Shown here: positions 21,224-59,358 of the stretch, one piece after another | How the letters are laid out: every line of letters starts with the position of its first letter | Position numbering within the stretch: position 1 is the first letter of the stretch | Assembly (NCBI GenBank): GCA_025611195.1 | Contig: GCA_025611195.1_4718.2 | From: a phage | Length of the DNA: 64,000 nt | Direction: 5' to 3' (one strand) | The notes under the pieces: model-generated | The model's database searches: none | What the model was told of the DNA's origin: nothing | The model's input: the letters and a program-made list of their open reading frames with translations, nothing else | Translations under genes and position numbers: made by a program

Positions 21224-21249
21224 GCATAAACCCTCCCATACCGGGAGGG
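21224..21249 (-). promoter_or_regulatory. stem-loop CCCTCCC-ATACC-GGGAGGG followed on the minus strand by TTTATGCTG
   Basis: Perfect 7-bp stem at 21231..21249 just after the stop of 21255..21683; TTTATGC at 21224..21230 (minus), 15 nt before the methyltransferase Shine-Dalgarno. Confidence 0.55.
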
Positions 21250-36146: not shown

Positions 36147-36175
36147 GCATAAAAGCCTCCCATTACGGGAGGCTT
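36147..36175 (-). promoter_or_regulatory. stem-loop AAGCCTCCC-ATTAC-GGGAGGCTT followed on the minus strand by TTTTATGCTG
   Basis: 9-bp stem 36153..36175 after the stop of 36187..36735; TTTTATGC at 36147..36154 (minus). Confidence 0.55.
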
Positions 36176-37742: not shown

Positions 37743-37783
37743 CGAACATAACCCTCCTCCGACCCATCAGGGAAGGAGGAGGG
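37743..37783 (-). promoter_or_regulatory. stem-loop CCCTCCTCC/GGAGGAGGG (14-nt loop) followed on the minus strand by TTATGTTCG
   Basis: 9-bp stem 37752..37783 after the stop of 37793..38107; the plus strand carries AATATGCTG on the other side. Confidence 0.5.
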
Positions 37784-44114: not shown

Positions 44115-44139
44115 GCATAAACCCTCCCCGAAGGGAGGG
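44115..44139 (-). promoter_or_regulatory. stem-loop CCCTCCC-CGAA-GGGAGGG followed on the minus strand by TTTATGCCG
   Basis: 7-bp stem 44122..44139 after the stop of 44150..44707; TTTATGC at 44115..44121 (minus). Confidence 0.55.
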
Positions 44140-45968: not shown

Positions 45969-46048
45969 GGATTTGTGTTGGTCCGTTTCGATGCCCATCG
46001 TATTTTATGGATTGTCGAATGACGTCATTTTTAAGGGACATCCCCGAC

Positions 46049-46088
46049 CTCCTCCCCACACCTTTCCTGGGGAGGAGTTTTATCATAC
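46049..46088 (+). promoter_or_regulatory. stem-loop CTCCTCCCC/GGGGAGGAG followed by TTTTATCATAC, upstream of plus-strand helicase gene
   Basis: 9-bp stem at 46049..46077, then TTTTATCATAC at 46078..46088, 24 nt before ATG 46112. The same TTTTATCATAC occurs at 54712..54722. Confidence 0.45.
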
Positions 46089-49762: not shown

Positions 49763-49795
49763 CTTCCTCCCTACCCATAACGGGCGGGGAGGAAG
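49763..49795. terminator. bidirectional stem-loop at convergent gene junction
   Basis: CTTCCTCCC / GGGAGGAAG 9-bp stem with 15-nt loop between the plus gene (stop 49744, then an A-run) and the minus gene (stop 49813). Flanked by AGCATAT and TTTATG. Confidence 0.6.
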
Positions 49796-49812: not shown

Positions 49813-50151
49813 TTAGAACCAGAGTTCTTTCATGAGGTAGGCTTCCATATCGTAGATAAGCCACTCGTCAGGAATTTCTAAAGGATCGTCTTCGGTTAAG
49901 GTCAGCATGTGCAGGGCGAACGCACGCTTAATATCGTTCAGCAGTTTCTCGTCGTCGTAACCTTCAGGTAACTTACGGTCTACCAGTTGGGTTTGTTTAT
50001 AGACAGCACAGAACGCTTCTGGGCTGTGTTTGTCCATCGGAAATTGTTCAGCAGCCTGAACCATCGTCAACGTCCAGCTTACAACATTGTAGCGCTCACC
50101 GTTAATTTCACTGAACTGATCATCGATTAAACAGATTTGTTGTACGTTCAT
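49813..50151 (-). CDS. hypothetical acidic protein
   Basis: 112-aa ORF; ATGA overlap. Confidence 0.5.
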   Translation of the reverse strand: MNVQQICLIDDQFSEINGERYNVVSWTLTMVQAAEQFPMDKHSPEAFCAVYKQTQLVDRKLPEGYDDEKLLNDIKRAFALHMLTLTEDDPLEIPDEWLIYDMEAYLMKELWF

Positions 50152-51110: not shown

Positions 51111-52685
51111 TTACAATTCAAAATCTTCATCGATAACGCGCTGGGTAAGCACTTTGTCGCTGAAGAACTCCACCTTGCGCTGATGGTATTTACGATGCGC
51201 TTCGATAGAAGTACATACCAGATACCAGAAGGTTGGCGTCATTCCTTCAAACTTCCCTTTCAGCTGACGCAGTCGCCCCAACACCTGAATGTTACCGGTT
51301 CGTGACCCCATCGCTAACGTCATGAACGCCATCACCAAGTCAGGAAGGTCGATACCCGTACCTGCCGATTTCACCGTCGTAACGCTAATATCGTTATCCA
51401 ACAAGACCATGAAATCTTCTTCAGCCGTATAAGGACCGATCTCTAACTCAGGAATACGTTCACTAAGGTAATGCGACAACGACTTACACATATCGACGGT
51501 TGCACAATACACCAGCATCTTCATACCTTCCTGATACTGGTTCATGAAACCTTTGATGATAACCGTATAGATGAAGTTAAAATACGCGAGTTTGAGTTGC
51601 TTGTTCTTCATGATAGACTGTTCGAATATCGTGTGAGAATAAGAACCCCCAAACCCTTTATATCTGACTTTATCTGTACTGCGTAGTCGATACGTCACGG
51701 CATTTACCGCAATGTATTTCTTGTATTCGCCTTTCGCATAACGGGCTTCTTTCGGATACATCAAATACAACATCCGCTCGATGAACGGATCATCGGACAC
51801 CGCCGTTGCTGACAGATAGATGATTTCCGGAATACTAGCGTAACACTTGACCTTAAACAAGAAATGCAATGCTTCATGGCACTCGTCATGAATCAGAAGG
51901 CCTATGCCGGTCTTTTCCCAAAACTCAGCGGGATGGAAGGCATATGGCGCAACGCAGTTATTCTTCTCGTAGTCCGCAATATAACGTTGGAACATGTTCA
52001 AGGAGAACAATGCGATTTTGAAGTCGAGTTCGCCTTGTTCAACCAAGGTTTGAAACTCCAACATACTGTAACGAGGAATGTCAGGATGCGGTGGATCCTC
52101 CTTAGCGTTCCCGCGTATCTCGATAACATCCCCTGGTTCCATCCCGAAGAAGTTCAGTAGTGAGCTTCGCCAACCTGGCATGTATCTCGGCGACAGAATG
52201 ATACCCGTCCGCACACCGCGTCGGAAGGTAATCTCCTGCGACATGGCCGTTTTTCCCGACCCCGTTTGAGCGGTGTTTAGGCTCATTCTGAAGGGGGTAT
52301 CCTTACCCCCGTCCATGTACTCCAACCATTCTTGCTGATCTTCACGCCATGGGAACTTCCATTTCTTTACGAACTCCACTTCTTTACCTGGTGCCGGATC
52401 GTGGTAAACGATTTCCAACCACTCTTTTCGTATCCCTCGGGAAAAGATAAAATCCAAAAACGATTTCAACTGTTCGCGGAGTAAGTATACCTCACTATAA
52501 TCGCTTCTTGCCGCGGCATACGTGTTTATGGTATCGGTAACCATTCTCCGTGTACGAGGGTCGCGCCGTTTCCTCAGATGCAAACAACGGTCTCGAAGGT
52601 AATGGCCGATAAGATGGGCAAATCGAAGTCCGTATCCGCTCAGCCTCATGCCGTGCGAGAAGACATCGATACGAGCTAACTTCAT
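51111..52685 (-). CDS. SF2 DExH-box helicase
   Basis: Motif I QTGSGKT, motif II LLIHDECH, motif III YLSATAV, motif VI-like QVLGRLRQ. ATGA overlap with the upstream gene. Confidence 0.75.
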   Translation of the reverse strand: MKLARIDVFSHGMRLSGYGLRFAHLIGHYLRDRCLHLRKRRDPRTRRMVTDTINTYAAARSDYSEVYLLREQLKSFLDFIFSRGIRKEWLEIVYHDPAPGKEVEFVKKWKFPWREDQQEWLEYMDGGKDTPFRMSLNTAQTGSGKTAMSQEITFRRGVRTGIILSPRYMPGWRSSLLNFFGMEPGDVIEIRGNAKEDPPHPDIPRYSMLEFQTLVEQGELDFKIALFSLNMFQRYIADYEKNNCVAPYAFHPAEFWEKTGIGLLIHDECHEALHFLFKVKCYASIPEIIYLSATAVSDDPFIERMLYLMYPKEARYAKGEYKKYIAVNAVTYRLRSTDKVRYKGFGGSYSHTIFEQSIMKNKQLKLAYFNFIYTVIIKGFMNQYQEGMKMLVYCATVDMCKSLSHYLSERIPELEIGPYTAEEDFMVLLDNDISVTTVKSAGTGIDLPDLVMAFMTLAMGSRTGNIQVLGRLRQLKGKFEGMTPTFWYLVCTSIEAHRKYHQRKVEFFSDKVLTQRVIDEDFEL

Positions 52686-54688
52686 AACGTGAATACATCC
52701 TCCGGTTTAGGTTCTTTGCGCGGTAAAAGCATGTAGTCGATCGGATGATCCGGCTTCATGGTTGGGATATAACTGTTCGGGTTTTGGAACGCATCCAGTT
52801 GCTCTTGGTGAGCGAACTTCATACTCAAGGAGCGCATGTTCATGTTCTTCTTGAAGGTGCTGAAGTATCGTGTTGTTCCCTGTTTCGGCATGCGATAATC
52901 TTTCGTGTGTGGCGAACGAATCATGCTGGCGTAGAGAATAACATCGAGATGCGAAAGGTTCATTCGCAGACGCTGTGCGCACAAGCGATGCCAATAGTAC
53001 AGCACGTTTGCAACTTCTTCCGGTGTTGCTTCGTCTTCCGAGAGGAACCCGGCACTGAAAGAACCTTTCCCGAATTTGAACTCACGTTCGATTTCTTTTG
53101 CGTATTCCATCATGTTTTTGTGGATTAACGGCATCTGGAATAACGTACGTGAATTGTCCCAATGTTTCAAGTCGAAAATCACAATCCCGTCAGACGTCAC
53201 TTCCCAGCTATGGCGTTTAAGATAACGGATAAACGCTTTACTCGGTACAACAGGACGTCCGCAGAAATCGAAATTGACTTTGAGCTTACGATAGCTTTCA
53301 TCTTTCCTGTCGTAAATCTCCATATCGCAAAGCGTCATGTTAAACAGACGCTGTGGTATCAGCGAACTGATTTCTTCCGCTTCGGCTACATCGTACAACA
53401 TGTTCGCAAGACCTAACTTCATCTTAATCAGCACGTGTTTACCTTTCAGCTCACGTGCGAGTTTGATGTCGTTCATGTTCTGGCTGTAACGAAGGATATG
53501 TTGATATTCCGGTGGGATTGGTGCTGTAGAGACCGTTGACGAACCGTCGTGGTGTTTGGTAGAAAGAATGTTCTGCGTTACCTGTTGCGAGCAGGTACGC
53601 GCTGCGCCATCGCCGACATTATCGGTTAATGCGAAGTTATGACTTAATTCACCATAACACGTTGTGCATACCCCAGCAGGATCGGGATGATGACAATAGT
53701 TAACGGAGCGCATACGCACTGTGGTGCCGATCAATTCTTTCATATGTGGTTGTATCGCTACCAACGAACCGTCATCACGAATAATGAATCGGCCGTGGAA
53801 GCCACGCAGGTCGGTCTCATCACGGATTGGCATCGGGATGGTCTCTCTACTACCACAATCACCAGGATGTAGTCGTTGCACAACCGCTGTCGCTATCTGA
53901 AGTTCACGACCGAAATATTCAGACTTTTTAATCTGCTCTTTGTTGAACAGCAACGATTTCGCCGCAGAACGACTTTCTTTCAAGCTGTCGGGAAGAGAGA
54001 TCAAACCTGACGCGTACGACCGCATTACTGGATCACGGAATATCTCGGAGTTAATATCGGTCAAGAATCCACGCATCCCAATACACTGCAGCACCTGCCC
54101 AATCGAAACGTGTTCGGTTCTTACCGCACGTGCAATAGGGTTTGCATGTAATGTTTTATCGGTGCTCAGTACCTTTGTCAGTTTCTTGTATGCGCTTTCG
54201 ATACCTTCGCGGGTGGGTTCCGCTTCAGCGATGATTTTCTTAACTTCGGGGTGTACGGTAATCTGATAAAAATCATCCGCACAAATAGTTGTTACGTATT
54301 CCTCCAACGCATACGTAAAGAAGTTATACACGTTGTTAAACATATCGAACAGTGCTTTCCAGAGAACCTCACGATTCTCTTGTGGGTAAGCATACATGCA
54401 TTGACGATACGCTGCGCTTTGCAACGCTACCGATGAACCCGCTGTAAACTTACGTTTATCAACCAGGTTCTCTTTTGTCAATGGTGTCTCAGGATACATG
54501 CGATGTACAGACCAGTGCATGTAACTAAAGAAAATGCGTCGCGCACGTAATTCATGAACGCCATCGTCCATCTCGATATATACACGGTCATTAGGCTGTG
54601 CCCACTCGAATACCTCATCAACCGGCCAGTGCATAAGCTCGCGTGCCCTCACACGACGTTTCGTGGTGGTCGTCTGTGTTGTAGTCAT
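52682..54688 (-). CDS. RNA polymerase beta'-like subunit, C-terminal fragment (multisubunit phage RNAP)
   Basis: Colinear similarity to bacterial beta' region F through the trigger loop: CIGMRGFLTDINSEIF (beta' AGMRGLMAKPDGSIIE), bridge-helix-like SRSAAKSLL, VRMRSVNYCHHPDPAGVCTTCYGEL (beta' [22 protein letters not shown]). No NADFDGD motif, so the N-terminal part is encoded elsewhere. Confidence 0.7.
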   Translation of the reverse strand: MTTTQTTTTKRRVRARELMHWPVDEVFEWAQPNDRVYIEMDDGVHELRARRIFFSYMHWSVHRMYPETPLTKENLVDKRKFTAGSSVALQSAAYRQCMYAYPQENREVLWKALFDMFNNVYNFFTYALEEYVTTICADDFYQITVHPEVKKIIAEAEPTREGIESAYKKLTKVLSTDKTLHANPIARAVRTEHVSIGQVLQCIGMRGFLTDINSEIFRDPVMRSYASGLISLPDSLKESRSAAKSLLFNKEQIKKSEYFGRELQIATAVVQRLHPGDCGSRETIPMPIRDETDLRGFHGRFIIRDDGSLVAIQPHMKELIGTTVRMRSVNYCHHPDPAGVCTTCYGELSHNFALTDNVGDGAARTCSQQVTQNILSTKHHDGSSTVSTAPIPPEYQHILRYSQNMNDIKLARELKGKHVLIKMKLGLANMLYDVAEAEEISSLIPQRLFNMTLCDMEIYDRKDESYRKLKVNFDFCGRPVVPSKAFIRYLKRHSWEVTSDGIVIFDLKHWDNSRTLFQMPLIHKNMMEYAKEIEREFKFGKGSFSAGFLSEDEATPEEVANVLYYWHRLCAQRLRMNLSHLDVILYASMIRSPHTKDYRMPKQGTTRYFSTFKKNMNMRSLSMKFAHQEQLDAFQNPNSYIPTMKPDHPIDYMLLPRKEPKPEDVFTL

Positions 54689-54809
54689 TATTGCTTTCCG
54701 ATTTAAATGGTTTTATCATACGGTTTACCAAATCCGTTGGACTTTACTATCGTTGTGATAGCATCGGGAATCCCTTCCCTTAGGTTATGTAGGTGTTAAT
54801 ATATCTCCA

Positions 54810-54831
54810 CTGCTGTCGTAAAGGTCAGCAG
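54810..54831 (-). promoter_or_regulatory. stem-loop CTGCTG/CAGCAG just after the stop of 54834..55319
   Basis: 6-bp stem with 10-nt loop. On the minus strand it is followed by GGAGATATATTAACACC, a TATATTA-containing variant. Confidence 0.35.
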
Positions 54832-54833
54832 CA

Positions 54834-55319
54834 TTATCCAGCTTCCTGTTGTATAGCGTATGGATCCATAGCGTCTGACATATTCGCAAAAACGGTGAGA
54901 ATAAACCCCTTTATCTGTCTCACCTCGGTTACACGAAGCCCTTTATCATTACGGTATACGTTTTCTTCACCAACCAACTTCGGCCTGATAGCATAAACCC
55001 CATCAACAAACGGGAATGTCGGATACGGATAAATACCGATACGAATGATGTTTGGATGATCGCCTAGAAGGTCACGCCCAAATGTATCTACTCTACCGTA
55101 AACCGTTCCATCCACACCCTCCACTTCAATGAGATCATTTCGAATATCCTGAAATAGCTGCTCTAATGTGTCGGCGGGGTACGTATATGCGACACCTAAC
55201 GCTGGGTCCTCAATGGTTTTGACACTGAATCCGTTAAGCCAAACAATCTGTTCATCCGCCCATGTTTCTTCATATACCGTTAATCCATCGCCGTATATGT
55301 TGGCGCGTGCTATCTCCAT
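54834..55319 (-). CDS. hypothetical protein
   Basis: 161-aa ORF with AAGAGGAAA before ATG. Confidence 0.5.
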   Translation of the reverse strand: MEIARANIYGDGLTVYEETWADEQIVWLNGFSVKTIEDPALGVAYTYPADTLEQLFQDIRNDLIEVEGVDGTVYGRVDTFGRDLLGDHPNIIRIGIYPYPTFPFVDGVYAIRPKLVGEENVYRNDKGLRVTEVRQIKGFILTVFANMSDAMDPYAIQQEAG

Positions 55320-55433
55320 AATCTCATTTCCTCTTATACGTTCGGATAGATGACATGTTGGATATACGTTGCCTTTGCATATATTGCTTTATTTCCGTCA
55401 GAAATAACGGAAAATAAAAACAACGACATAGTT

Positions 55434-55463
55434 CCCTCCCACCTCCACATGGGAGAGGGAGGG
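55434..55463 (-). promoter_or_regulatory. stem-loop CCCTCCC/GGGAGGG (16-nt loop) after the stop of 55477..55842
   Basis: 7-bp stem; a second hairpin TTTCCGT...ACGGAAA lies at 55391..55412. Confidence 0.5.
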
Positions 55464-55476
55464 CTATTCGTGTTTA

Positions 55477-55842
55477 TTACTCTATGCTGTCTTCTTCAAC
55501 ACAATCCTCTTCGGAACCGTCGAACGTTTTCTGCACCGCAGTGGTATCCCAGTTGGCAGCGTAATCAGCCATCGCTTCGCGCAACGCTTCTTCACCAGCA
55601 TCGCCAGCCAGATCAAGCACAACCAAACCTTGCGCGACGTTTTGAGCGACAGTATCAATAACGGTTGCATCTTCTTCAAAACTACGTACCGGTTCAATGG
55701 TGCCTACATCAACAGCATAGTTCGTGGTCGCTGTAAGCACGGCGACTTGTAGTGCATCGCTATTATCATCATCATGCAGTGCTGCTTCAATACCGATTGG
55801 ACGGGCCAGTTCTTGCAGTGTTAATTTGCGAATTAAGTTCAT
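55477..55842 (-). CDS. small acidic protein (acidic trio A)
   Basis: Shares LTLQELAR with the 55866..56216 product and VLDL.G with the 56335..56748 product. Confidence 0.5.
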   Translation of the reverse strand: MNLIRKLTLQELARPIGIEAALHDDDNSDALQVAVLTATTNYAVDVGTIEPVRSFEEDATVIDTVAQNVAQGLVVLDLAGDAGEEALREAMADYAANWDTTAVQKTFDGSEEDCVEEDSIE

Positions 55843-55865
55843 TATGTTTTTTCCTCAGGTGAATG

Positions 55866-56216
55866 TTAGCAATCGTTTAAAACTTTTTCGATACGATGGT
55901 TGACGAGTTCATTGAACGACTCTTCAACTTGTTCGATAATTTCATCAACGTCGATATCTAATTGTTGGGGTTGGATAACATGCTCTTTCATGGTTTCTAA
56001 CCAGTATTCGGCTTTAACCATAACGTTAGCTACTTGTTCGACCTGGCTGCGTATGTCGACGATCTGGCAGTCAGGATTTTTAATATCGATGATGTGTCCG
56101 TGCTGATTGATAAAGCCTAGTTTATTCGACGCCTTTACCGCATCGCGGGCAAGTTCTTGCAAGATTAAATTATTTACGTAGTTCACTGCTACGGAACGAT
56201 TTTCTTTATCACTCAT
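55866..56216 (-). CDS. small acidic protein (acidic trio B)
   Basis: Start moved to ATG 56216 (AAGAGGA upstream); the ORF-track N-terminal extension runs through the stem-loop. Confidence 0.5.
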   Translation of the reverse strand: MSDKENRSVAVNYVNNLILQELARDAVKASNKLGFINQHGHIIDIKNPDCQIVDIRSQVEQVANVMVKAEYWLETMKEHVIQPQQLDIDVDEIIEQVEESFNELVNHRIEKVLNDC

Positions 56217-56284
56217 ACCAGGGATCCTCTTTAAGTCTTCACATTCTAGTGTTAAGCAGTTAAAATAAACCGTCCCTTTAATCA

Positions 56285-56323
56285 GCATAAACATCCTCCT
56301 CCTACCATGCGGGCAGGAGGAGG
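56285..56323 (-). promoter_or_regulatory. stem-loop CCTCCTCCT/AGGAGGAGG followed on the minus strand by TTTATGCTG
   Basis: 9-bp stem 56295..56323 after the stop of 56335..56748; TTTATGC at 56285..56291 (minus), about 70 nt upstream of ATG 56216. Confidence 0.55.
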
Positions 56324-56334
56324 CGTAATATGCA

Positions 56335-56748
56335 TCAGAAAGGTGTGCGATTCTTATATTCGAATAATGTCTGAAGGACACATCGTGTTAACGAGTTTTG
56401 TAATTCGATACGTCCTTGTTCTCCGAACAGATCCAACACCATCATCCCTTTTGCTGTTTTCTCTGCCACTTCTTCACAAATCTGTAAATTGTACATGTCG
56501 TCATTGCCGAGTTCCTTTCGACCGATCGAACTGACACGCATCAACTCACCTTTACTATCGCGAACATCGGAGAATGCATCATAGACCGCATCGATGTTCG
56601 CAGAACGCGTCAAACCCTCCGCTTCGCGCCACTCTCGATATGTACCATCAAGCGTTTGTTCCTCGCCCGAGGTTGTTGATTCGCTGTTGGTGGTTGGGCG
56701 AATTAAATGGGGTGTTATCATCGCGATCACGCTGTCGTAATGGTCCAT
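56335..56748 (-). CDS. small acidic protein (acidic trio C)
   Basis: 137-aa ORF immediately downstream of the beta-like gene. Confidence 0.5.
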   Translation of the reverse strand: MDHYDSVIAMITPHLIRPTTNSESTTSGEEQTLDGTYREWREAEGLTRSANIDAVYDAFSDVRDSKGELMRVSSIGRKELGNDDMYNLQICEEVAEKTAKGMMVLDLFGEQGRIELQNSLTRCVLQTLFEYKNRTPF

Positions 56749-56759
56749 CGTTTACCTCG

Positions 56760-58928
56760 TTAGCTTTCGCAGTCATCTGCGTCGATGATTTGTCCGCCAG
56801 CAACGTTCAGTTGATGATACAGAATCCTCAACGCACGGTTGCCACCAATGGGATACTTCTCGAAGTTGGTCGCAATAGGAATCGCTGACGGCTTATCGGT
56901 CGCATAGATGCTTTCAGTGATGCTATCCACCTGTTTTGGATTGTTCGCATAGTCCATAAAGACGCTCGCAAACCATCCGCCAGCGAAGGCGGTAACTTCG
57001 CGATGTTCAGATTCGCCACAGTAACGAGTCGGTTGCTCTTTACCGGGAGAACTGTATTTATCGCTATTACTGAGTTTCGACGGTAATCCATGCGCTTGCA
57101 ATTTAGGGATACCCACAGCCGACCAATCGTTCGCCGTCTTCTCCAACATCATGATGTACGTGTCACCGATCGCAATATCGTTCTTGGTTGTCCGCCACTG
57201 TCCAGAACGCCCGCGGTACCGTACAGGACCTTTCTTCAACGGGAACTCACGAATCAGATTCTCCATACGTTCTGAACCTGCTGCGATACTGTCCGTCGGG
57301 ATATAAACTTCCGTACCGTGGCGCTGTACGTACCGTAAATGATCCCATTTATCCTCATTCGTGATACAGTATTTTTCAACAACCTGTTCCACGAACTCAG
57401 GACTGACGATATAGTAATAGCGCATCAGTGTGTTCCAGGCGGTCTCCAGATCGCCTGCATCCATCACTGGTTTCAGTTCACGCATGATCTGATCACCAAC
57501 GCCGTTGATGTATGGCGCATTAACACGACTTAAACTCATCCTTTTAATTACCGTGCTATCGTCAAACATAAAGTCCGCAACGTTACCCCATTGGTCAACC
57601 GGCATTTCATCGTCTTCCATGATGTCGGTTACGACGAATTTATCGCCTGCCATACCGGTGAATTTAAACCCGATGCCTGGAACAACGTCATACGTGTATG
57701 TGATGGTCACACGCCAATCATCAAGATTCTCTTTACGGTAATCGCGGGTCGGTAACACATGGCGTAGCTGTCCGTTAGGATTGCGGATATCAATACCGTG
57801 TTCAGCGTCAGCCAGGTTCAACCACCACATCACCGTTTGATGATGACGTATCGGCGTACCAACGCGTTCACGTTCGTACTTACGAACAGCATCCTGAATT
57901 CGGGTGTAAAGCAAACCGATTGCGTTCTCGTATTTCAGGAATTGACGATACGGAGGACGCATCTTCTCTTCCATCATAATCGCGCGCTCGCGGGCTTGAC
58001 GTCCAGAACGACGATGTCGATCGCTGACAACATCGATATCCGTTACACGCGCATTCGGTTCAGCGTAAGTGAGATCATCGTAAACATAATCCACACGCTG
58101 AAGATTACACGTCATCATGTCAACAACGCTGAGGATAGGATCTATTTCGCGTGTTGCTGCAAGTAACCCATCCTTACGAATACGCTCACCGTTCTCGGGT
58201 ATCGCTTGATATACCTCATCATCGCCGTAGAGATTAATTGGATATCGTGATTTACCTGATGTGATCGTTCGCTTCTCAATGCCGGTACTGGTGAAATGCT
58301 TCAATACACCACGACGGGCAACGCCACCATCTTCAATACACTGGTAGAAGCTACCGAAACACACCTTGCAATCGCGACCGTAACCCCACTCACGTGTTTC
58401 TTGATTGATCGCTGGGCTTTCCATCAAACGAGAATATCGCGGTACGATCTGGCCTCGACGAAGGGAATGGAACAAGTTGGTTGGTCGAAAACGGAAACCG
58501 TACTGCTGATGCATGATGTGATGCTCAGGCACTTCAAGCAAGCGTAGCTCGTGACGGTTACCATCCTCTTGGTTTTCGTACAGCACGTAATGCATCGTGT
58601 TTGTTTTGATGCTGTTTGCTGTATGTCCTGGTTGAAACCGTGGAATGATATCTATGATGCGAGATTCAACTGGAAACTCTACTGACCAAGTGTTCTGTCC
58701 GTACTGGTATTCAATCCCCGTCGTTAGTCGGGACGGCTTCGCATCTTTGATAACCAACGCTTGGCTAAGATGTCCACCAAACATCGCAGCGCGCTGTGCT
58801 GAGTTATAATGCAATAGCCCGTTAAGTCCAGTCCCTACGCCAGTATACTCCTGTTTAATGGGAATGATTTTACCTTCAGCGATTGCCTGCTTCACAGATT
58901 CATAAAGAGGTTTTTCTTTATAATGCAT
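56760..58928 (-). CDS. RNA polymerase beta-like subunit, C-terminal fragment (multisubunit phage RNAP)
   Basis: Colinear matches to the beta catalytic region: GMAGDKFVV (beta GDKMAGRHGNKG), EDDEMPVDQWGNVAD...KRMSLSR (beta EDMPYDENGTPVD...SRMNIGQ), IGDTYIMMLEKTANDW (beta GYMYMLKLNHLVDDKMHA), GESEHREVTAFAGG (beta GEMEVWALEAYGAA). Start moved to ATG 58928 (AGGAAG upstream). Confidence 0.65.
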   Translation of the reverse strand: MHYKEKPLYESVKQAIAEGKIIPIKQEYTGVGTGLNGLLHYNSAQRAAMFGGHLSQALVIKDAKPSRLTTGIEYQYGQNTWSVEFPVESRIIDIIPRFQPGHTANSIKTNTMHYVLYENQEDGNRHELRLLEVPEHHIMHQQYGFRFRPTNLFHSLRRGQIVPRYSRLMESPAINQETREWGYGRDCKVCFGSFYQCIEDGGVARRGVLKHFTSTGIEKRTITSGKSRYPINLYGDDEVYQAIPENGERIRKDGLLAATREIDPILSVVDMMTCNLQRVDYVYDDLTYAEPNARVTDIDVVSDRHRRSGRQARERAIMMEEKMRPPYRQFLKYENAIGLLYTRIQDAVRKYERERVGTPIRHHQTVMWWLNLADAEHGIDIRNPNGQLRHVLPTRDYRKENLDDWRVTITYTYDVVPGIGFKFTGMAGDKFVVTDIMEDDEMPVDQWGNVADFMFDDSTVIKRMSLSRVNAPYINGVGDQIMRELKPVMDAGDLETAWNTLMRYYYIVSPEFVEQVVEKYCITNEDKWDHLRYVQRHGTEVYIPTDSIAAGSERMENLIREFPLKKGPVRYRGRSGQWRTTKNDIAIGDTYIMMLEKTANDWSAVGIPKLQAHGLPSKLSNSDKYSSPGKEQPTRYCGESEHREVTAFAGGWFASVFMDYANNPKQVDSITESIYATDKPSAIPIATNFEKYPIGGNRALRILYHQLNVAGGQIIDADDCES

Positions 58929-59318: not shown

Positions 59319-59358
59319 CCCTCCCACAGCGTAAAGCGTAGGGAGGGCATTTATGCCG
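59319..59358. terminator. stem-loop CCCTCCC/GGGAGGG at convergent junction, followed on the plus strand by ATTTATGCCG
   Basis: 7-bp stem 59319..59347 with 15-nt loop between the plus gene stop (59313) and the minus gene stop (59379). Confidence 0.5.

Follow-up and report, generated by a model that had tools for sequence, protein, structure and literature searches.

The question raised by the locus described here is what three small acidic genes are doing between two RNA polymerase (RNAP) subunit genes of a jumbo phage. The locus lies in a 64,000-nucleotide stretch of phage DNA (contig GCA_025611195.1_4718.2 of NCBI GenBank assembly GCA_025611195.1), referred to below as the window, which belongs to a close relative of the nucleus-forming jumbo phage Escherichia phage vB_EcoM_Goslar (89% DNA identity over 54700-57000). 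An original prediction, made from the sequence alone, took the three genes for co-transcribed paralogs that might encode RNAP-associated factors or DNA mimics. Nucleus-forming jumbo phages must bring in everything needed before their first genes are read, and no role is known for the majority of their abundant particle-associated proteins.

The explanation that we favour, and to which we give about an even chance of being right as a whole, is that the three genes, designated A, B and C, are lineage-specific accessory genes carried by an island lodged between two genes of the non-virion RNA polymerase (nvRNAP). Genes B and A would form a bicistronic late unit of their own and encode abundant acidic virion-associated proteins, while gene C would encode a low-abundance paralog of A, made together with a polymerase beta gene. 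The genes themselves are already annotated orphans of the Goslar lineage, and the product of the A ortholog, Goslar gp168, was lately noted as an abundant virion-associated protein. The paralogy of gp168 and gp170, the proposed unit structure and the cassette turnover of gp170 are, to our knowledge, new, no earlier description having been found in the literature consulted. Goslar gp168 gains a paralog (gp170), an apparent late unit shared with the abundant gp169, and a place in a lineage-specific island splitting the polymerase genes, and the attractive but unsupported reading of the genes as new polymerase subunits is removed.

Genes of the locus

All three predicted reading frames were found on the minus strand, and their products are acidic, as had been proposed. 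Gene A (55477..55842) encodes 121 amino acids (aa) with an isoelectric point (pI) of 4.05 and a net charge of -21, gene B (55866..56216) encodes 116 aa (pI 4.68), and gene C (56335..56748) encodes 137 aa (pI 4.68). The genes carry the ribosome-binding sites GAGG, AGAGGA and GAGG, respectively. When 81 crude open reading frames (ORFs) of the window are ranked by net charge per residue, A is the most negative, and B (as a longer ORF) and C come 8th and 9th. The three are the orthologs of Goslar gp168, gp169 and gp170 (YP_009820853-855, annotated as hypothetical proteins), with protein identities of 97.5% for A, 93% for B and 54% for C, the last being a divergent 'window-type' allele. Locus-tag numbers in the Goslar RefSeq record NC_048170, viewed over 160-237 kb, run out of positional order past gp186, where gp247 and gp246 come next and the numbers then descend; gene numbers in papers therefore need matching via protein accessions, and the identity of gp168 with YP_009820853 was confirmed in this way.

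The polymerase genes on either side are also on the minus strand, and the window genes match Goslar gp165-gp171 one for one. Upstream of C lies the second part of nvRNAP beta (56760..58928), the ortholog of Goslar gp171, with a match to PHROG 3295 (E = 3.5e-180) and a weak Rpb2_6 match. It is 99.9% identical to gp171 over 722 aa; its start was taken from the 722-aa Goslar annotation, and the open frame extends to 59093. At the syntenic position of this gene, gp248 of Erwinia phage RAY is annotated as nvRNAP beta subunit 2. Beyond A lies the second part of nvRNAP beta' (52682..54688), the ortholog of Goslar gp165 (99.4% identity; PHROG 3015, E = 9e-170), whose RAY homolog carries the annotation nvRNAP beta' subunit 2. 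Both gp165 and gp171 are labelled nvRNAP in the Goslar proteomics table (bioRxiv 10.64898/2026.04.21.720040). The location of all three genes between beta-like and beta'-like genes thus stands as predicted, with one omission: a fourth small acidic gene, the gp166 ortholog (54834..55319, minus strand, 161 aa, pI 4.31), lies between A and beta' and had been overlooked.

A, B and C are real, expressed genes under purifying selection. Their lack of known domains and their low-confidence structure models would suit non-coding or decaying filler between the polymerase genes, but the probability of this is virtually nil: pairwise dN/dS is 0.03-0.2 across seven genomes, reading frames and ribosome-binding sites are conserved in 12 genomes, and peptides of gp168, gp169 and gp170 were all detected by mass spectrometry (bioRxiv 10.64898/2026.04.21.720040).

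An insertion confined to the Goslar lineage

In Erwinia phage RAY, PhiPA3, Burkholderia phage FLC9 and Klebsiella phage Eowyn, the block surrounding the polymerase genes is syntenic with the window and the second beta and beta' genes are directly adjacent. Because of this adjacency, the Goslar lineage is seen to carry an insertion of about 2.1 kb, comprising five small genes (gp166-gp170), which splits the two. The original prediction had proposed a search for the three genes near RNAP genes in related phages; outside the Goslar lineage they are absent from that position, and A, B and C are not conserved beside the polymerase genes across chimalliviruses. Within the lineage, the order beta-C-B-A-gp166-beta' is kept in Goslar and in five metagenomic loci (all those whose order was compared), and the B, A and gp166 genes with both spacers were located in five further genomes.

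The distribution of the proteins is equally narrow. Searches of Pfam, PHROGs, NCBIfam and PADLOC gave nothing above noise for A, B, C and the gp166 ortholog, and PDB sequence profiles gave nothing above noise for A, B and C; at E <= 1, Pfam (PF12699 included) yielded no match to the three beyond a noise match of B to DUF6428. A tblastn search against 50,697 phage records returned Goslar alone, and a word-indexed search of 5.8 billion proteins returned Goslar-like phages alone, plus one A homolog of about 50% identity. An exhaustive HMMER search with the A profile against 1.84 billion representative proteins gave two 50%-identity clusters and nothing more, and a scan of viral and metagenome contigs with the C-alignment pattern gave Goslar-like genomes alone.

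One more distant relative is informative about the history of the island. A 3.9-kb Logan contig (L002) carries beta, a C-like gene, a terminator, an A-like gene and an unrelated gene, with no B. The C-A order without B in this contig points to the C-A pair as the older arrangement, which fits a tandem duplication and is consistent with B having been inserted later, or lost in the L002 lineage. The G+C content across B (55800-56200) falls to about 0.40-0.42, against 0.45-0.49 in the flanks, a dip that would fit a later acquisition of B into the space between C and A.

Proposed transcription units

The original prediction placed a GGAGG-type hairpin at each junction and regarded the genes as co-transcribed between beta and beta'. 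The genes are indeed co-oriented, and strong CCUCC...GGAGG hairpins follow C and A; no hairpin is present in the beta-C gap (11 nt, the distance from the beta stop codon to the C start) or in the B-A gap (23 nt, from the B stop codon to the A start). The terminator-like hairpin after C occupies 56295..56323 on the minus strand (CCUCCUCCUGCC / GGUAGGAGGAGG, 12 pairs, folding z = -4.2), and just past it lies a TTTATGCTG element (56283..56291, minus strand), which appears to resemble the late promoter of phiKZ (a TATG at whose G transcription starts). The terminator-like hairpin after A occupies 55434..55463 on the minus strand (CCCUCCCUCUCC / GGAGGUGGGAGGG, folding z = -4.3) and is directly followed by a TATG (55427..55430, minus strand), which is invariant among relatives while its preceding three bases vary. 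Both hairpins and both TATGs are kept in 12 Goslar-like genomes, and for the C hairpin only the loop varies.

The phiKZ late promoters that the non-virion polymerase uses are characterized by a TATG whose G is the start site (PMC4666361). Since the hairpins and TATGs at the locus are conserved and phiKZ late promoters are defined in this way, we infer that transcription would be divided into three units, comprising beta and C, B and A, and gp166 and beta', and the single co-transcribed series would give way to a punctuated one. In this arrangement, two hairpin-plus-TATG modules would punctuate transcription; C would share its expression with the polymerase beta gene, and B and A would be a bicistronic unit of their own, with a late TATG-type promoter as its probable driver.

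Hairpins of the GGAGG type punctuate the genome in general and are no peculiarity of this locus. The CCTCC...GGAGG form was counted at about 9 sites of the window (21232-21248, 36156-36172, 37753-37782, 44123-44138, 46048-46075, 49766-49792, 55435-55462, 56295-56323 and 59320-59346), against 0.34 expected by chance. On the transcribed strand, (T)TTATGCYG is found 0-6 nt past the hairpins, and the combination GGAGG-N0-6-TATG occurs 13 times, against 1.9 expected. The composite motif has the look of a terminator joined to a TATG late promoter of the phiKZ type. Where gene ends converge, and also at two co-directional sites, both strands bear a TATG.

Two features of gene calling touch on these elements. 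Automatic calls often give B a length of 139-142 aa (e.g. P0032-34), with a start at the ATG within the TTTATGCTG element (window 56217-56294); the 116-aa start at 56216 behind AGAGGA is more plausible, and the longer calls are probably wrong. The equivalent of Goslar gp167, an ORF of 31-38 aa (55334-55450, minus strand), overlaps the terminator hairpin, the TATG elements and a second small hairpin, and gp167 is missing from the Goslar proteomics table (bioRxiv 10.64898/2026.04.21.720040). It may not be a gene.

Abundance in Goslar virion preparations

Published evidence on the products of the orthologs comes from virion proteomics of Goslar, for which copy estimates are given in Table S4 of a 2026 preprint (bioRxiv 10.64898/2026.04.21.720040), the source of all the figures that follow. 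The A ortholog gp168 was estimated at about 219 copies per virion (8 peptides, 50% coverage), which makes it one of twelve unmodelled proteins above 200 copies per virion, and the B ortholog gp169 at about 92. By comparison, the C ortholog gp170 is not a high-copy protein (about 2.8 copies), gp166 is present at about 1 copy, and the nvRNAP proteins gp165 and gp171 are at 0.25 and 0 copies, respectively. According to the authors of that study, neither the sequence nor the AlphaFold3 model of gp168 suggests a function. All four of the other high-copy unmodelled proteins that they imaged were genuinely packaged.

These figures suggest that B and A are abundant, highly acidic proteins, of which each particle likely carries roughly 100-200 copies in or on it, and which may enter the cell along with the DNA. 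The association of gp168 and gp169 with the virion is likely, and falls short of proven because, as the authors caution, fragments of the nucleus and filaments of PhuZ were present in the same preparation (about 126 copies of chimallin, about 171 of PhuZ and about 78 of ChmC). Several further points weigh in the same direction. Co-sedimenting assemblies contaminate the virion preparation, and the imaging proof of packaging covers proteins other than gp168 and gp169; label-free quantification is rough for small proteins; and the proteomics come from Goslar and not from the window phage, though protein identity between the two phages is 97.5% for A and 93% for B. The AlphaFold2 models have low confidence (pLDDT 43 and 51). 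As for the late B-A unit, the late-promoter role of TATG is transferred from phiKZ, and at some hairpins TATG stands on the opposite strand too, or is paired with an upstream GCATA, and may partly extend the stem.

The same contamination supplies the substance of an alternative, in which B and A encode late proteins of very high abundance that stay out of the particle, such as assembly chaperones, scaffold-like proteins or components associated with the phage nucleus or virion bouquets, and only co-sediment with virions. The phage-nucleus and PhuZ material in the Goslar preparation was at a similar apparent copy number, and gp168 lies outside the cryo-electron microscopy (cryo-EM) model of the Goslar virion, both of which speak for this alternative. 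However, gp168 outnumbers chimallin, PhuZ and ChmC in that preparation, and each of the four other high-copy unmodelled proteins chosen for testing in that study proved to be truly packaged. We regard co-sedimentation as unlikely, if a serious alternative, and virion association of B and A as the better account of the copy numbers.

Another small, very acidic protein of the window is the gp162 ortholog (49813-50151, minus strand, 112 aa, pI 4.26), whose Goslar counterpart was estimated at about 127 copies in the virion preparation (bioRxiv 10.64898/2026.04.21.720040). Small, acidic and abundant proteins may thus form a wider class in the window phage.

A possible role with the polymerase

The position of the genes invites the idea, raised in the original prediction, that A, B and C are nvRNAP accessory factors, acting in assembly, nuclear import or regulation and placed so as to couple their production with that of the subunits. 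They sit between two nvRNAP genes, and C, for which this idea is likeliest, starts 11 nt past the beta stop codon with no terminator between. Such factors do exist, since phiKZ uses the small acidic protein Imp7 (gp166, 131 aa, pI 4.66) for nvRNAP import (PMC13622101). However, A, B, C and the gp166 ortholog have no similarity to Imp7 (Smith-Waterman z = 0.1-1.2). The polymerase-factor reading is disfavoured because A, B and C, for which no homologs came up outside the Goslar lineage (all three by tblastn in cultured phages, A by HMMER, C by the contig scan), are absent from other chimalliviruses with the same polymerase genes adjacent (RAY, PhiPA3, FLC9 and Eowyn), because terminator-like hairpins set B and A apart from both polymerase genes, and because gp168 and gp169 exceed the nvRNAP subunits roughly 400-fold or more in the Goslar virion preparation. 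We consider it improbable for the three genes, and B and A would accordingly be accessory proteins of the particle, not RNA polymerase subunits.

Paralogy of A and C

The original prediction treated all three products as paralogs on the strength of short shared motifs. The kinship of A and C withstands every comparison made, and that of B does not. With hhalign, A residues 57-94 align with C residues 86-123 (E = 7e-5, 38 columns), and with BLASTP, A 61-91 aligns with C 90-120 (E = 2e-5). The Smith-Waterman z-score is 6.4 for A against C and 7.7 for A against the C-like protein of a distant relative, neither score being reached in any of 2000 shuffles. Profile searches of 1773 six-frame ORFs, which span nearly all of the genome, gave A and C a single significant non-self match apiece, namely one another (E = 8e-5 and 0.012).

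The similarity is confined to a C-terminal module, and extending the A-C alignment to full length gained no score. The module is encoded at 55561..55674 (minus strand) in A, as residues 57-94 (...DTVAQNVAQGLVVLDLAGDAGEEALREAMADY), and at 56380..56493 (minus strand) in C, as residues 86-123 (...EEVAEKTAKGMMVLDLFGEQGRIELQNSL...). Its pattern, VAxxxAxGxxVLxLxGxxGxxxL, is the best-conserved part of both families, in C across its three lineages. In the AlphaFold2 models of A and C, which are of low confidence, the module forms a helix, a break at the conserved glycine and a second helix; with pLDDT values of 42.6 for A and 50.5 for C, these models are too poor for the surface charge pattern to be read. 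When the low-confidence C model was compared by Foldseek with BFVD and PDB, no E-value below 0.8 was obtained.

The link proposed between A and B rested on the motif L.LQELAR. The motif exists, in a similarity 14 residues long, and it is at chance level: its score was reached by 50 of 2000 shuffles, the hhalign probability is 16%, and the motif is lost in an A homolog of 48% identity (P0024), which reads QSLLEVLRP. B has no similarity to C in any pairwise comparison and no paralog among the 1773 ORFs. A placement of the A/C module in the B N-terminus was tried and is unsupported (z = 0.7). The three products do not, then, make up a family in which every pair is similar: A and C are old paralogs that share a C-terminal module of about 38 residues, and B is unrelated to them by every comparison. 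Of the checks proposed originally, alignment supports A and C and not B, and structure prediction gave models of A and C at the low pLDDT values stated above.

Cassette turnover of gene C

Gene C departs from its neighbours in its divergence from Goslar. DNA identity in 60-nt bins is 93-98% outside the gene and drops to 45-77% within 56339-56745, an interval that corresponds to the C ORF, before returning to 98% in the next bin. At the protein level, A, B, beta and beta' are 93-99.9% identical to their Goslar counterparts, and C just 54%. Two allele classes can be distinguished, in phages that are otherwise nearly identical. The window-type allele is present in the window, L003 and L017, and P0025-28 are 88-94% identical to the window C; the Goslar-type allele is present in the ten other compared genomes (L001, L007-L010 and L018-L022) and in P0029-30. 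Between classes, protein identity is about 55%, with dN of 0.40 and saturated dS, while within classes dN/dS is 0.04-0.18. The divergence reflects a precise cassette replacement by recombination and not relaxed constraint. Such turnover suggests selection at a phage-host or phage-phage interface, and the precise replacement of the gp170 allele makes this gene a candidate phage-host conflict gene.

This turnover and the acidity of A bear on the second proposal of the original prediction, DNA mimicry. In its fuller form, the genes would encode anti-defence or host-takeover effectors, with host DNA-binding proteins being decoyed by the acidic A in particular, and with C as a fast-exchanged paralog that escapes or targets variable host factors. 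The net charge of -21 over 121 aa makes A the most acidic ORF of the window, four consecutive small acidic genes lie in a lineage-specific accessory island, and the precise allele-cassette turnover of C is typical of arms-race genes. However, neither Ocr, ArdA nor any entry of Pfam, NCBIfam, PADLOC or PDB matches A, B or C; the A and C models (pLDDT 42.6 and 50.5) are unusable for recognizing a DNA-like charge pattern; acidity by itself is unspecific; and chimallivirus DNA is already shielded by a vesicle and a protein nucleus. We judge this proposal distinctly unlikely. The Avs5 activator JADA proved to be unrelated.

A more specific scenario combines mimicry with the virion association of B and A. 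The B-A pair would be loaded in the capsid at roughly 100-200 copies and delivered with the genome to the early vesicle or host cytoplasm, where it would mimic nucleic acid and so decoy DNA-binding defence or nucleoid proteins of the host, while C would stay in the cell, made with beta and swapped as a cassette under immune pressure. We think this quite improbable; if true, the injected decoy pair and the cassette gene C would represent a new family of injected effectors in nucleus-forming phages.

A helicase gene with a possible intein

Downstream of beta' lies a helicase gene (51111-52685), whose product is 524 aa long in the window, Goslar and L010, and 753 aa long in L003, L007, L008 and L009. 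The extra stretch of about 229 aa in the long forms has a Hom_end-associated Hint match below threshold (E = 0.006), which suggests a helicase intein carried by only some of the genomes.

Comparison with known systems

The neighbourhood of the locus is shared with the gp68-gp75 block of phiKZ, in which two 528-aa genes, a 426-aa gene, beta, beta' and the helicase are syntenic, and which includes gp68, the fifth nvRNAP subunit. By contrast with A, B and C, which are 116-137 aa long and confined to the Goslar lineage, proteins of the gp68 type are about 520 aa long and family-wide. Imp7 of phiKZ resembles them as a small acidic chimallivirus accessory protein tied to nvRNAP (PMC13622101), but no resemblance between it and A, B, C or Goslar gp166 could be detected, and it is encoded far from the polymerase genes.

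T7 Ocr, ArdA, Ugi and T7 Gp2 are small acidic proteins that mimic DNA. A is similar to them in size (about 120 aa) and in its strong negative charge (pI 4.05, net charge -21), while B and C are just moderately acidic (pI 4.68). None of the three matches a DNA mimic in sequence, and membership of a known DNA-mimic family was not found for any of them in Pfam, NCBIfam, PADLOC, PHROGs or PDB sequences.

In abundance in the preparation, B and A recall several high-copy chimallivirus proteins that are packaged or injected, namely Goslar gp60/gp61 and gp208/gp209 and the PF12699 'inner body' proteins (such as Goslar gp58 and phiKZ gp93), which are abundant, are unresolved in virion cryo-EM, are encoded by adjacent genes and have no assigned function; gp169 and gp168 are likewise adjacent and abundant. 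They differ from these proteins in lacking PF12699 or any similarity, in being much smaller and far more acidic, and in being encoded in the polymerase block and not in the structural block. The closest counterparts of A, B and C are Goslar gp168-gp170, their direct orthologs in the same gene order, from which the window differs in carrying the other allele class of gp170.

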